Shown: positions 10,028-13,538 of the stretch, in pieces | Position numbering within the stretch: the stretch's first letter is position 1 | Layout: every line of letters starts with the position of its first letter | Source of the DNA: Saccharolobus islandicus Y.N.15.51 | GTDB taxonomy: Archaea > Thermoproteota > Thermoprotei_A > Sulfolobales > Sulfolobaceae | Direction of reading: 5' to 3' | NCBI RefSeq assembly: GCF_000022485.1 | Contig: NC_012623.1 | Location: 2,580,674-2,604,673 of the forward strand | DNA: 24,000 nucleotides | Made by a program: the position numbers and the translations under genes | The notes under the pieces: model-generated | Databases searched by the model: none | What the model was told of the DNA's origin: nothing | What the model saw: the letters and a program-made list of their open reading frames with translations, nothing else

Positions 10028-10138
10028 TCACACCCTAATACCCGGAGCTCTACCAACTAAAGAATTAGCCAAGTGGACCATCCACGCGTAAGCCCAGAAC
10101 TTGAGCTTAGCCTCAACCACTTGCCCTAAAAAACTCCT
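10028..10138 (-). pseudogene. Detached C-terminal tail of the ISC1058-like transposase
   Basis: The minus strand reads (R)SFLGQVVEAKLKFWAYAWMVHLANSLVGRAPGIRV*. Joining at the shared agg codon restores a continuous frame with ...FGESVRATR at 12751 and upward. Confidence 0.75.
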
Positions 10139-10433
10139 ACGGGGCAATCCACGCAAAACAAGAGAACGAATAAAACCAAGTATTACAAGAGAAAAGGAAA
10201 TAAACAAGTAAGGAGAAAAACAACATAAGCTCATAGAAAACATGGGGATAAAACCCCATCTACAAGGCTAGCTGTGAAGCCCCTAGAACGATCTAACAAG
10301 AGGGGATAAAAACCCCCGAGTAGGAGGTTGTAACAAAATACTCTAGGGGCTGAAACACTTAACACTATGCAAAGAAAACAAGGTATTATGAGAACAAAAA
10401 ATATCTCGAGAAACGCGTAATACACAAGCATGG
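10139..10433 (+). ncRNA. Candidate IS110 bridge-RNA-type structured non-coding region (5' arm of the element)
   Basis: - The region has no credible ORF.
- A perfect 10-bp long-range helix pairs agcccctaga (10278-10287) with tctaggggct (10342-10351).
- Two related hairpins are present: atgggg-ataaaa-ccccat (10242-10259) and gggg-ataaaaa-cccc (10302-10316).
- ctacaagg (10260-10267) equals the minus-strand target sequence spanning the insertion point. Confidence 0.3.
10425..10433. repeat. Left copy of the 9-bp target-site duplication (caagcatgg) of the IS1-family insertion
   Basis: It is identical to 11559-11567 and contains a copy of the IS110 recombinase start codon. Confidence 0.85.
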
Positions 10434-10478
10434 GGAGTGTTCTTATGCAGTCATCTTATTCGAGAACTTATAGTAAAA

Positions 10479-11429
10479 TTATATCAGAGTTTCTCTAATA
10501 TTCTGTACTCCCCTCAAGTAAGCCTCGTTCAAGGGAGTCTTCTCCCTTGAATAAATTACTGGATACATGACATTAAGTAAGGCAAGACTATAATCAACCA
10601 TTCTCTCACTCCTATTGACAGCCCTAGTGTCCCTAGCCAACCTAGCCAAATGAGCCCTACAGTAAGAGTTATAACTCTCAACCGTATAAGTGTACTTCTT
10701 ACTTGCAACGTGATTGTCAAGGACTTGATAAACAGAGTAATCATCAGTGTAATTAACCTCACTCTTAGGCAGAGAATTCAAGAGAAAACTAAAAGTCTTA
10801 TAATCCCTATCACCCGTAGTAAAGAAGGGTAAACCATCAGCTAAGGCATTCCAAATCCACAAGTTCTCCCTCTTGGAACCATGCCTAACCCTAAGGTAAG
10901 TCCAACTCTCGTCAAATACCGTGACTTTTGCGGTAAAGCTTTTTAGTTGCTCTTGTAGGACTAATAAATTAACGTATGCCACTATTCCTTTTCTCTTTAT
11001 CAGACTGTAAACTGTAGTTAAAGGTTTTCCCTCAACTTTAGCTATTCCCCTCATGCTCATCCTATTCAAGTACTCCTTCAAGATCCTCTCCTTTTGCTCC
11101 CTACTCATCCTACGACTATTAGCATCGTAGAAAGTCCTTCTGCAGACATTACACTTGTACTTTGTCTTACCTCTTGATGAACCATTCTTGATCACCTTGT
11201 CCGACTTACAAGATGGACAGTTTGGCCTAATCTCCCTCCTCTTCCTTACACCCAATTTCCTAGTGTAGTAATAAATTGTTGATGGCGGTATTCCAAGCTT
11301 AGTTATTGGCACTCCCAACAAGTATGCAGCTATTGCCATTGAGATCCTTTCTAGATCGTGTTTTCTAGGCTTAACCTTTAAATTCTCTAAAATCAATACT
11401 ATTAATTGTGTGAGGGTGACGAGGTCCAT
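10479..11429 (-). CDS. IS1-family transposase (single fused ORF, apparently intact)
   Basis: 316 aa. It has an InsA-like zinc finger, CPSCKSDKVIKNGSSRGKTKYKCNVCRRTF, and then an HTH region. The InsB-like catalytic part reads DESWTYL...WIWNAL...TDDYSVY...TVESYNSYCRAHLARLARDTRAVNRSERM, which compares with IS1 IERHNLNLRQHLARLGRK. Confidence 0.85.
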   Translation of the reverse strand: MDLVTLTQLIVLILENLKVKPRKHDLERISMAIAAYLLGVPITKLGIPPSTIYYYTRKLGVRKRREIRPNCPSCKSDKVIKNGSSRGKTKYKCNVCRRTFYDANSRRMSREQKERILKEYLNRMSMRGIAKVEGKPLTTVYSLIKRKGIVAYVNLLVLQEQLKSFTAKVTVFDESWTYLRVRHGSKRENLWIWNALADGLPFFTTGDRDYKTFSFLLNSLPKSEVNYTDDYSVYQVLDNHVASKKYTYTVESYNSYCRAHLARLARDTRAVNRSERMVDYSLALLNVMYPVIYSREKTPLNEAYLRGVQNIRETLI

Positions 11430-11467
11430 TCTCGTCTCCCCTATACAATCTCGTCACCCTCACACAA
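11406..11467 (-). promoter_or_regulatory. Perfect 18-bp inverted repeat enclosing the IS1-family transposase start codon
   Basis: ttgtgtgagggtgacgag (11406-11423) is the exact reverse complement of ctcgtcaccctcacacaa (11450-11467). The ATG (11429-11427) lies in the 26-nt loop. One arm encodes residues 2-8 (DLVTLTQ). Confidence 0.5.
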
Positions 11468-11558
11468 GAAGTTTTCTCACGAAGACTTATAATCTTAACA
11501 TATATTTAATATTTTTACTATTCAATATCGAATAAGATGACTGCATGAGAACACCCCC

Positions 11559-11567
11559 CAAGCATGG
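11559..11567. repeat. Right copy of the 9-bp target-site duplication (caagcatgg) of the IS1-family insertion
   Basis: It is identical to 10425-10433 and includes the ATG (11564-11566) of the IS110 recombinase. Confidence 0.85.
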
Positions 11568-12723
11568 AATTAAAAGTTACAAACAAGGCCTTCGCAATTG
11601 ATATTTCACAAAGCAAACTAACAGCAGCAAAGGGAGAACTAGTAGTAGAACAAGAAAAATCAGCAGTATACGTCAAGGAGGTAAAGGAATTCAACCACGA
11701 CAACGAGGGAATAGAGGAACTAATTAAATTCCTAGGAGAATATAAGGAAGGAATAATAGAGGCAACTGGAATATATTACTTCTACCTACACGAAAAACTA
11801 ACGGAAAAAGGATACAAGGTAACAGTAATAAACCCACTACACCTAACAGAAATACTAGGGAAAAAGACAGACAAACTCGACGCACAAAGGTTACTAGTAG
11901 CACACATGACCGGAGTAATCAAGGGATCATACATACCAACAGGAGAAATAATGGAGCTAAGAGAACTAACGAGATATAGGGAAAGCTTAGTAGAGAAGAC
12001 AACACAAGTAAAGAACGAGATAAGGAAAATATTAGAATTCGCGGGATATAAAATACAACCATTCGACAAGAAGGGAAGAAAACTACTTGAAAAGCTAGTA
12101 AAGGGGGAGGGACTAAGCAAGGAAGAGAAGGAGGAACTAAAAGAAAAACTAGGGAGAAACTTAAACGACGCGGAAAACTAGCGTTAAAACAATTAGTTGA
12201 ACTGTTAAAAAACTTGGAGAAAATGATTAAGGAGGTTGAGGATATGATAATTTCCAAGATTCCAAAACCAGTAATTGAGTTGAGTAAGATCCCCGGGATT
12301 GGTTTGATTAGTGCTGCAACTATTTACGCTGAGTTCGGTGATGTTTCCCGTTTTTCCAGTTCTAAGGCTGCTAGGGCTTATGCAAGCTTTGCACCCAAAA
12401 CTAAGCAGAGTGGTGATAGCGAGTCTCACTCCGGTATGATTAGGGGTAATAAGTATTTGCGTAGAGCTCTCTACTTGGTTGCCAAGGTTGCTAGGGGTCT
12501 TGAGCCTTTTAAAGGGTATTATGAGAGGCTTATTGCTAGGGGGAAGAGTGTTACTCAAGCTACTTGTGCTCTTGCCGGAAAGCTTGCAAGCATTTGTTAT
12601 CATGTTATAAAGGACGGTGTTTACAAGGGAGTTGTCAAGAAGAGTTTTAGGATTCCTAGGGGTAAGGAAGTTAATGTCAAGGACTTCGACGTGGGAGACG
12701 CGCTAGACTCGTTATCCCCATAG
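11564..12723 (+). pseudogene. IS110-family DEDD recombinase/transposase, split into two frames (11564-12181 and 12142/12214-12723)
   Basis: The N-domain reads AFAIDISQSKL...IEATGIYYFYLHEKL...VINPLHL...KKTDKLDAQ (DEDD/RuvC-like). The C-domain reads LSKIPGIGLISAATIYAEFGDVSRFSSSKAARAYASFAPKTKQSGDSESHSGMIRGNKYLRRALY (Transposase_20). The frames overlap at 12142-12181, and a -1 shift is needed to join them. Confidence 0.85.
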
Positions 12724-12750
12724 GTTTGTTAGAGGCGTCAGCATGTAGTG

Positions 12751-13538
12751 CCTTGTAGCCCTAACAGATTCCCCAAAAGTACGCTTCACAGCAGAGAATA
12801 AGGACTCAATCCTCCACCTAACACCGTAACCCCTCTCCTCCCTCCAACGATTATAACCCAACCTCTTGAACTCCCTTACAGCCTTTCTCCTAGCAGGATG
12901 ACCGCGTCTAGTGGAGGCGTTCTCCCTAGGTGGAACAACAACCTCAACCCCAGTCTTGTAAACCTCATTAGCATCATAAGCTTTATCTCCATAAAACTTC
13001 TTGACCTTCTTTCCCTTATCTTGTAAATCCTTAACCGTCTTAACTGCAGTCTGAACCTCGTTGCTGGTTACTTCAGCGTTTATTACGTTGAATTGGTCCT
13101 TATCCATTACTATTTCGATCTTGAGGAATTTTGAGTCCTTGGTTTTTCCCCATTTTGCAATTGTCCTCCCTTGTTTGTGCTTATTCCCGTTGCGTCTGCT
13201 ATTACTTCAAGTTGGTCATTTGCCTCTGGGAATTTTATGTTCATGTTTCTTACTCTTTCCCATATTGTTGAGTAGTCTAGGCTTGTTGGGATGATTTTCA
13301 GTCTTTCTAATGCTCTCAATACTCCTTCTATGGCCCTATAAGGTAGGAACAAGTGCAGGAACGCTAGGAAGTCGTTGAACTCCTTTGGCGCCTTGTAGGT
13401 TTTCTTGGCATTCCTATTCTCTTCTGCTAGTAATTCCCACCAGTGTTGGAAGACGTAGAAGGGGAACATTAGCTCGTATCTAGTTATAACGTTCTCGTCG
13501 TACTTGCTCCAATCCCTCTTGTACTTACTCTTTCCCAT
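12751..13538 (-). pseudogene. ISC1058-like IS5-family transposase, N-terminal and central parts (frameshifted at about 13160 and truncated by the IS110 insertion at 12750/12751)
   Basis: - The ORFs 13538-13110 and 13107-12712 carry the IS5-type motifs YGDKAYDANEVY and RWRIESLFSAVKRTFGE.
- Compared with copy 2 (23930-23990), copy 1 lacks 7 nt (ggacaat[acattat]agc... versus ggacaattgc...). That deletion splits the ORF.
- The last 13 codons of the track ORF (12750-12712) are IS110 sequence. Confidence 0.8.

Follow-up and report, generated by a model that had tools for sequence, protein, structure and literature searches.

What does the long non-coding left end of an IS110-type insertion sequence (IS) encode in an archaeon, and does it tell the element where to insert? 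The question is raised by a locus in Saccharolobus islandicus Y.N.15.51, where a 24,000-nucleotide (nt) stretch of contig NC_012623.1 (positions 2,580,674 to 2,604,673), referred to below as the window, carries such an element among nested insertions. An earlier note on this DNA had proposed that the left arm holds a bridge RNA, of the kind defined in bacterial IS110 elements, and that an IS1-type insertion has uncoupled it from its recombinase. We conclude that positions 10224-10350 are very probably the bridge RNA gene of an ISSto4/ISC1491-type IS110 insertion sequence of the Sulfolobaceae, and we infer that the RNA is transcribed and assembles with protein. It is a previously undescribed member of the bridge-RNA class; its target-binding loop is clear, and it has both a CT core and a guide for the right donor. 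The proposal of the note is thus supported, by the IS110-type anatomy of the arm, by loops that covary with the flanks, and by a recombinase of the IS110 DEDD/Ser type.

Predicted fold and probable target guides of the left arm

For the comparison, 22 distinct RNA regions from Sulfolobaceae genomes and metagenomes were aligned with MAFFT. The arms were gathered by exact-protein look-ups and by a scan of metagenome contigs for the conserved motif GCTGTGAMGCCCCTAGAA, about 27 of whose 41 matches are true arms; a protein scan of genome contigs gave 3 loci only, and a pattern scan of viral contigs found none. One locus with 53% identity (L015; L numbers denote the collected loci) was left out of the alignment, its upstream sequence being too short. 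The aligned arms are 86% identical overall, with two hypervariable blocks flanking the first hairpin and at least 90% conservation at the remaining positions. In 10224-10350 of the plus strand, RNAalifold predicts two modules built to the same plan, each with a basal stem and a GGGG/CCCC hairpin that is preceded by a 5' loop and followed by a 3' loop. There are 26 pairs in the consensus structure, with 97.9% of the cells paired across the 22 sequences, and the RNA region of the window folds with a minimum free energy of -47 kcal/mol (z = -6.1, 200 shuffles). A covariance model made from these arms matches the window once, at 10209-10359 (180 bits). The arm and its first module are composed as follows.

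10136-10433, plus strand: non-coding arm at the left end of the ISSto4/ISC1491-type IS110 element, as far as the IS1-type insertion (full-length alignment with arms L001-L018 and L060-L067; boundary from an empty site)
10224-10276, plus strand: target-binding module, basal stem CAUA(A)GCU/AGCUGUG around two loops and a hairpin (RNAalifold)
10234-10241, plus strand: left target guide UAGAAAAC, of the same sense as the left flank TAAAAAA plus core C, with one G·T wobble (hypervariable block; flank match)
10244-10257, plus strand: hairpin GGGG-AUAAAA-CCCC between the two target guides (RNAalifold; pair counts)
10260-10266, plus strand: right target guide, CUACA plus the core complement AG, the reverse complement of CT+TGTAG (7/7 against the L068 empty site)
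10267-10268, plus strand: candidate handshake guide GC, complementary to the donor bases at 12750-12751 (GC) but not to the target AA (concept from IS621, PMC11208158)

Across the family the basal stem of this module takes the form CAUA(A)GCY/RGCUGUG. Its closing pair changes from C-G to U-A in 7 of the 22 sequences, and the four G-C pairs of the 10244-10257 hairpin are invariant in all sequences but one (21/22).

The case for a bridge RNA is carried by a check that the earlier note had named, the covariation of the loops with each copy's own flanks. For the right side, the 5 nt of the 3' loop that precede the conserved AGG were compared with the first 5 nt beyond the right end; for the left side, the 8 nt ending two bases before the hairpin were scored against the left flank. 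The right guides reach 56 matches out of 70, compared with 28.9±4.1 under permutation, and none of 100,000 permutations attains the observed value. For the left guides the score is 162/232 against 121.6±6.1, again attained by no permutation (0/20,000). In the window itself the left guide agrees with its flank at 7 of 8 positions, plus one G·T wobble. Matching pairs from other copies are listed here, guide before flank.

L067 (S. caldissimus), guide pair GUUAUAAC / UGGAG: left AGUUAUAAC / AGTTATAAC, 8/8 as scored and 9/9 on extension; right UGGAG / CTCTA, 4/5 plus one G·T wobble
L012, left: UGUCCUCC / TGTCCTCC, 8/8
L056, left: UAGAGAAC / TAGAGAAC, 8/8
L020, left: UAAUAAAC / TAATAAAC, 8/8
L017, right: UCACG / CGTGA, 5/5
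L013, right: GUACA / TGTAC, 5/5
L023, right: CUAUA / TATAG, 5/5
L034, right: CAAGG / CCTTG, 5/5
ISC1491, right: CUAAU / ATTAA

The 8-mer CTACAAGG, which had been read as identical to the minus strand of the target across the insertion point, is indeed present at 10260-10267. Seven of its eight bases fit the pre-insertion target (CT+TGTAG), and the last one, G10267, fits instead the right-end base of the element. The reservation that this match might be due to chance can be dropped, as it is one instance of the family-wide correlation between guides and flanks.

Could the arm be a promoter and 5' untranslated leader only, with the likeness of loops and flanks arising by chance or by shared ancestry within the same repeated host element? 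The little covariation in the stems would fit such a view, and so would the fact that the window, L001, L030, L035, L032 and L043 share an ISC1058-family target and are not independent. However, at least 10 distinct guide pairs match ten unrelated flanks in different species, and when the left side is permuted by guide class the score is still 91 against 69.3±4.6, with 0/20,000 permutations reaching it. Moreover, the left guide is a direct copy of its flank and the right guide an inverted copy. This is exactly what is predicted by bridge-RNA pairing with opposite strands, the bottom strand for the 5' side and the top strand for the 3' side (PMC11208160; PMC11208158), and it is not what shared ancestry predicts. 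We consider the leader explanation very improbable.

Another option is that the variable segments work as DNA, that is, as internal target copies that the recombinase aligns with the target duplex. The sequence data used here do not directly separate RNA from DNA. Nevertheless, the segments fall in single-stranded loops of the strongly predicted sense-strand fold, the plan is that of IS621, whose RNA appears in cryo-electron microscopy structures (PMC11208158), and the recombinase is homologous to the IS621 enzyme. An action as DNA is, in our estimate, extremely improbable.

The guide assignments depend on where the element begins and ends, and this was settled by empty target sites. None was found among the first 67 loci collected; an ISC1058-family copy found later (L068) is an uninterrupted target site, reads CCTAAAAAACTTGTAGCCC and has the core CT once. 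A second empty site lies within the window, where the flanks of the S. caldissimus copy L067 align to 10567-10676 and 10675-10786 and overlap by exactly CT. The core is thus CT in both empty sites (L068; window 10675-76), as it is in IS621. The positions concerned are the following.

10134-10135, plus strand: left copy of the CT core, derived from the target (L068 empty site AAAAAACTTGTAG; occupied site AAAAAACT followed by CCTACGGGG)
12752-12753, plus strand: right copy of the CT core (sequence and comparison with L068)
12724-12751, plus strand: right end of the element, with the invariant motif TTGTTAGAGGCG (12726-12737) and the terminus GCATGTAGTGC, kept in all relatives whose right end was recovered
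10666-10681, plus strand: vacant sibling target within the IS1-type element (GAGTTATAA CT CTCAA), where the L067 flanks meet
11164-11177, plus strand: second vacant sibling target within the IS1-type element (GTCTTAC CT CTTGA), where the left flank of L044 terminates

The site at 11164-11177 also fits the guides of L029 (GUCAUACC, 7/8, and UCAAG, 5/5). Because the two empty sites fix the junctions, the duplicated core is CT, and the element runs from 10136 (CCTACGGGG) to 12751. Its length as an insert is 2618 bp with the nested IS1-type element and about 1483 bp without it, one core copy counted. Several boundary details of the earlier note have to be revised accordingly: its CCT/agg core is replaced by CT, its start at 10139 is 3 nt off, and in place of its reconstructed target gctacaagg/agt the empty site reads gctacaag/tttttt. 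Intact ISC1058-family transposases read ...SVRATSFLGQ..., and the reconstruction with a CCT core gave one residue more. The short 3' arm, given as 27 nt, was measured at 27-28 nt. A variant with a CCT core, in which the preceding CT would be the footprint of the handshake guide, was rejected, since the empty sites show that CT is the core and CCT the first 3 bases of the element. With CT as the core, the apparent gap between left guide and core disappears, together with most of the variation in the register of the left guide.

It can be noted that the left terminus carries one or two copies of CCT (or CCT+CCC), as seen on comparing L004 with L064 and the minus-strand copy L032 with the window at 10136, and also in L013 and L019. 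The number differs even at the same host target (CTCCT vs CTCCTCCT); slippage or the footprint of repeated recombination could be the cause. In L020 and L054 a solitary left-terminus fragment, CTCCTCCTACGGGC, lies about 20 nt upstream of the complete copy and might be left over from an earlier insertion or from partial recombination.

The probable donor-binding module and the right end

The second module contains the following parts, listed together with its partner at the start of the element.

10279-10350, plus strand: donor-binding module, basal stem GCCCCUAG/CUAGGGGC around two loops and a hairpin (RNAalifold; near-invariant in the family)
10287-10301, plus strand: 5' loop of the donor module, AACGAUCUAACAAGA, invariant apart from a sublineage without CGAUCU
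10302-10317, plus strand: donor-module hairpin GGGG-AUAAAAA-CCCC(C) (RNAalifold)
10320-10326, plus strand: right donor guide, GUAGG plus the core complement AG, the reverse complement of CT+CCTAC at 10134-10140 (read from the sequence)
10136-10140, plus strand: right-donor half-site CCTAC, the first bases of the element, complementary to GUAGG at 10320-10324

The 3' loop of this module is longer than that of the target module. Its right donor guide has one compensating change in Sulfurisphaera tokodaii, where the left terminus reads CCCAC and the loop GUGGG. The structural features described in the earlier note are all found. Its perfect 10-bp long-range helix pairs AGCCCCUAGA (10278-10287) with UCUAGGGGCU (10342-10351) and encloses the hairpin at 10302-10317, and the twin hairpin (AU)GGGG-AUAAAA-CCCC(AU) lies at 10242-10259. 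What changes is the role of the helix, which is the basal stem of the donor-binding module and not a feature of the target loop.

On either side of this helix stand GUGAAG (10273-10278) and CUGA (10350-10354), which could form tandem G·A pairs and are box C- and box D-like; L013 lacks the 3' GA of CUGA. The corresponding kink-turn was rejected, as a C-stem is absent. In L044 the first bases of the element (CCTACGGG) are joined straight to the second module, the entire target-binding module being deleted.

Taken together, the guides suggest a mechanism of the following kind. The RNA would be transcribed, possibly from the conserved AAATAA box that precedes it by 26 nt. In the donor module, GUAGG-AG of the 3' loop would pair with the core CT and the first five bases of the element, CCTAC. 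As in IS621, a tetramer of the DEDD/Ser recombinase would carry out the strand exchange at CT, the partners being the target and a circular form of the element whose predicted junction reads GCATGTAGTGC-CT-CCTACGGGG, and the GC at 10267-10268 would pair with the incoming donor strand after strand exchange, as a handshake guide. Both the RNA-protein assembly and the chemistry are inferred.

As regards expression, the putative promoter can be placed as follows.

10198-10205, plus strand: candidate TATA-like box of archaeal type, AAATAAAC, lying about 26 nt before the first stem

Every aligned arm has the AAATAA at this position unchanged, even the divergent L013 and L016. Some 27 nt before the ATG of the recombinase there is a second A/T-rich box, AAAAAATAT (about 10398-10406), and in this copy the IS1-type element is inserted between that box and the recombinase open reading frame (ORF). 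Against the general background of promoters and leaderless mRNAs in Sulfolobus, the arrangement of the two boxes suggests that RNA and recombinase would be on separate transcripts.

A number of points weigh against the assignment as a bridge RNA. The stems barely vary: there are only two compensatory pairs, probably of one event each, and the effective sequence number is 1.29. Judged from the alignment, stem covariation would neither prove nor contradict the fold. An Rfam 15 scan at gathering and permissive thresholds returned chance matches only. Guides fail to match the flanks in L010/L011, L038, L041 and on the right side of L064 (S. tokodaii copy B). Many copies are decayed, in line with the description of most Sulfolobus IS110 copies as decaying remnants (PMC10883916), and since their flanks have been shuffled through recombination between copies, the insertion events are not fully independent. 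The register of the left guide differs by 1 nt between sublineages, a difference that persists with the CT core. An oligo-T terminator was not found downstream of the RNA. For ISSto4, ISC1190, ISC1228, ISC1229 and ISSto5 the entry 'Detected Bridge RNA End' is blank in Supplementary Table 5 of Durrant et al., which covers ISfinder elements (PMC11208160). Finally, IS621 has a left donor guide identical to the last bases of the element, while no guide resembling the terminus GUAGUGCC was found in the loop 10287-10301 or in the rest of the Sulfolobaceae arm.

The left donor guide was searched for by exact and wobble-aware ungapped scans and by aligning the two loops of the donor module locally, with gaps, to the right end, and nothing rose above shuffled sequences. 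A 7/10 match at CAAGUAUUAC was rejected as such a guide, being at the estimated chance level and showing no covariation. The loop segment UCUAACAA (10292-10299) is complementary over 8 nt to the right-end motif TTGTTAGA, 20-27 nt from the core, an extent reached in 28 of 5000 loop shuffles. This pairing is nominally unusual, but as an essential contact it was rejected, because the sublineage without CGAUCU (L067, L020), which carries a 6-nt deletion, keeps its guide-flank matches.

These observations bear on a narrower reading, in which the RNA guides only the choice of target and the right donor half, as a minimal guide similar to a seekRNA. Recognition of the right end would then fall to the recombinase or a host protein, acting through TGTTAGAGGCG, or else to the UCUAACAA-TTGTTAGA pairing, and the second module would not be a full IS621-style donor-binding loop. 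The arm without a guide identical to the right-end terminus speaks for it, as do the 8-nt complementarity just described, the invariance of TGTTAGAGGC at the right end even in L013 and L015, the elements with 53% identity, and the 'half-match' recombination reported for IS621 (bioRxiv 10.64898/2026.08.31.748434). In its loop-pairing form, however, it has to face the flank-matching guides of the deletion sublineage, and a top-strand polarity and distance from the core unlike those of every solved bridge complex; in addition, both partners are invariant, so that covariation is uninformative. We regard this narrower reading as somewhat unlikely.

Within the bridge-RNA reading itself, a related proposal is that the Sulfolobaceae RNAs form an archaeal lineage of distinct structure, without the canonical left donor guide and with another way of reading the right end. 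It is put forward tentatively, as a quite unlikely one. The right end may be read through pairing of TTGTTAGAGGCG with the 5' loop of the donor module, or by protein alone, these being the two candidates. If such a lineage exists, recombination would take place at 75-80 °C on target guides of 7-8 bp and half of the donor guides.

The nested elements and their relatives

We now consider the state of this copy, for which three further features are needed.

10434-11558, minus strand: nested IS1-type insertion sequence (inverted ends and duplication; Pfam DDE_Tnp_IS1)
11564-12723, plus strand: IS110-family DEDD/Ser recombinase gene, with a frameshift from the loss of 1 nt near 12170-12176 (ORF analysis; Pfam PF01548 and PF02371)
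12754-13538, with its other part at about 10028-10133, minus strand: target host gene, an ISC1058-family (IS5-type) transposase (Pfam DDE_Tnp_1, DDE_Tnp_1_5)

The non-coding left end proper, 10136-10429, precedes the recombinase ORF, whose start is a duplicated ATG. The arm had been described as free of ORFs, which is correct for long ones; short minus-strand ORFs of 40-71 amino acids overlap it. The uncoupling of arm and recombinase, also described before, is confirmed in every part. The IS1-type element, with its transposase ORF at 10479-11429 on the minus strand (Pfam DDE_Tnp_IS1), sits at the start codon and has the two copies of a 9-bp duplication, CAAGCATGG, on its sides (10425-10433 and 11559-11567). 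As the recombinase ATG lies within this duplication, the two copies of the ATG are 1134 bp apart, and the recombinase behind them is frameshifted.

Adding one A to the A-run near 12170 restores a recombinase ORF of 386 amino acids. The repaired protein matches the structures of IS621 (8wt6, E 7.6e-19) and ISCro4 (9t56, E 1.2e-16). Its IEATG, KTDKLDA and QSG motifs align with those of IS621 (8wt6), an AID motif is N-terminal, and the RuvC-like DEDD residues and the serine of the Tnp domain are retained.

No recombinase would come from this copy, because the IS1-type element separates promoter and start from the ORF and because of the frameshift. When the two flanks of the IS110-type element (about 10028-10133 and 12754-13538) are joined, the frame seen in intact homologues of the host transposase is restored. 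This transposase is itself split by a frameshift or stop into minus-strand ORFs at 13110-13538 and 12754-13107, and all three nested elements at the locus are therefore inactive. The copy is thus a dead relic within an ISC1058-family element, interrupted by an IS1-type element. Its RNA gene and both element ends are intact, and it could at most be moved in trans. The nesting is reciprocal, with an IS1-type element inside an IS110-type one here and the reverse elsewhere (L067, L044).

The recombinase belongs to a compact clade with homologues in Sulfurisphaera tokodaii (ISSto4), Saccharolobus solfataricus (ISC1491), S. islandicus, S. shibatae, S. caldissimus, Sulfolobus tengchongensis, Acidianus and Stygiolobus; outside it, the nearest proteins come from bacteria and are about 30% identical. 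One copy of S. tokodaii str. 7 occupies BA000023.2 830606-834166. Three S. islandicus loci (L010, L011, L014) have intact recombinase genes of 382-386 amino acids, a right end that stops after GTTTGTTAG, and guides unlike their flanks. Downstream of the right end, a fragment of an opposite-strand Transposase_20 gene is found in L010 and L011 and a DDE_Tnp_2 transposase gene in L014. In six metagenome loci (L041, L046, L047, L055, L052 and L044) the arm is followed not by the recombinase start but by a different sequence (…ATATATAGGAACACATGATTGACACCCGTAAATTC…), which is probably another nested insertion.

In the metagenome loci L005 and L065 the flanks of two S. tokodaii copies are exchanged, as compared with L004 and L064: copy B's left flank stands with the right flank of copy A, or the other way round. 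These combinations point to recombination between copies, and hence to chromosomal rearrangement. L017 and L018 share their right flank and differ in the left one, and the same is true of L010 and L011; recombination is assumed to be the cause.

Comparison with known systems

A full-text literature search found no description of a bridge RNA for Sulfolobales, ISC1491, archaea or thermophiles, and neither expression nor biochemical work on these elements. Vaysset et al. catalogued 662 archaeal IS110 recombinases, and in the portion of that report available to us RNAs are not described (bioRxiv 10.1101/2024.06.21.599552). RNA guidance was already expected for these elements, as NCBI names the S. 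islandicus and S. shibatae homologues 'IS110 family RNA-guided transposase', and the kind of system is known, which limits the claim. Bridge RNAs were defined in bacterial IS110 elements, and the published models left ISSto4, ISC1190, ISC1228 and ISC1229 without a detected RNA. The bridge-RNA reading explains why these elements insert into other insertion sequences. With it come, as a resource, guide assignments to the single base, a covariance model, predicted empty targets, and about 16 pairs of guides reprogrammed in nature together with the targets that belong to them. If correct, it would provide direct evidence of RNA-guided recombination in hyperthermophilic archaea and put a thermostable bridge system on offer.

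The closest parallel is with IS621 (PMC11208160; PMC11208158), whose RNA sequence, as used for the comparison, is present at 100% identity in E. coli genomes. In both systems the RNA comes from a long left non-coding end upstream of a DEDD/Ser recombinase, with guides of 7-9 nt and a CT core; the two pseudo-symmetric modules of IS621 have their counterpart in the two modules predicted here. The first module consists of left target plus core in top-strand sense, a hairpin, the reverse complement of core plus right target, and two handshake bases, which in IS621 pair with non-cognate DNA after strand exchange (PMC11208158). The 3' loop of the second module is the reverse complement of core plus right donor. 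There are also clear differences. The two RNAs have no detectable sequence similarity, and that of the Sulfolobaceae lacks the 5' stem-loop, has short GGGG/CCCC hairpins and carries a 16-nt extension in the 3' loop of the donor module. In most sublineages its left target guide pairs with the first core base only, and its host is a thermoacidophilic archaeon.

The seekRNAs of IS1111- and IS110-type elements (Siddiquee et al. 2024, PMC11187229) resemble the present case in that short segments of RNA from a non-coding region match both target strands, in the natural reprogramming among relatives, and in element ends that are hard to define without an empty site. In IS1111-type elements, by contrast, the RNA follows the gene, the strand matches come in reverse order and there are long subterminal inverted repeats; the Sulfolobaceae element is arranged as IS110 types are, with the RNA upstream. 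The engineered bridge recombinases ISCro4 (PDB 9t56) and IS622 (bioRxiv 10.1101/2025.05.14.653916) are related through the protein, the window recombinase being homologous to them (E 1.2e-16 to 9t56), but they are bacterial enzymes.

A more distant comparison is with the archaeal box C/D small RNAs and their protein Nop5, which Vaysset et al. propose as relatives of IS110 systems. These are likewise bipartite guide RNAs with two guide-bearing loops, and the GUGAAG...CUGA around the basal helix of the second module faintly recalls their C and D boxes. In the Sulfolobaceae element, however, the guides fit DNA flanks and not rRNA, the terminal C-stem is absent, and the partner protein keeps its DEDD/Ser residues. 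The bridge RNA described here, if it is one, would add an archaeal data point to the proposed link between IS110 recombinases and the Nop5 box C/D ribonucleoprotein.

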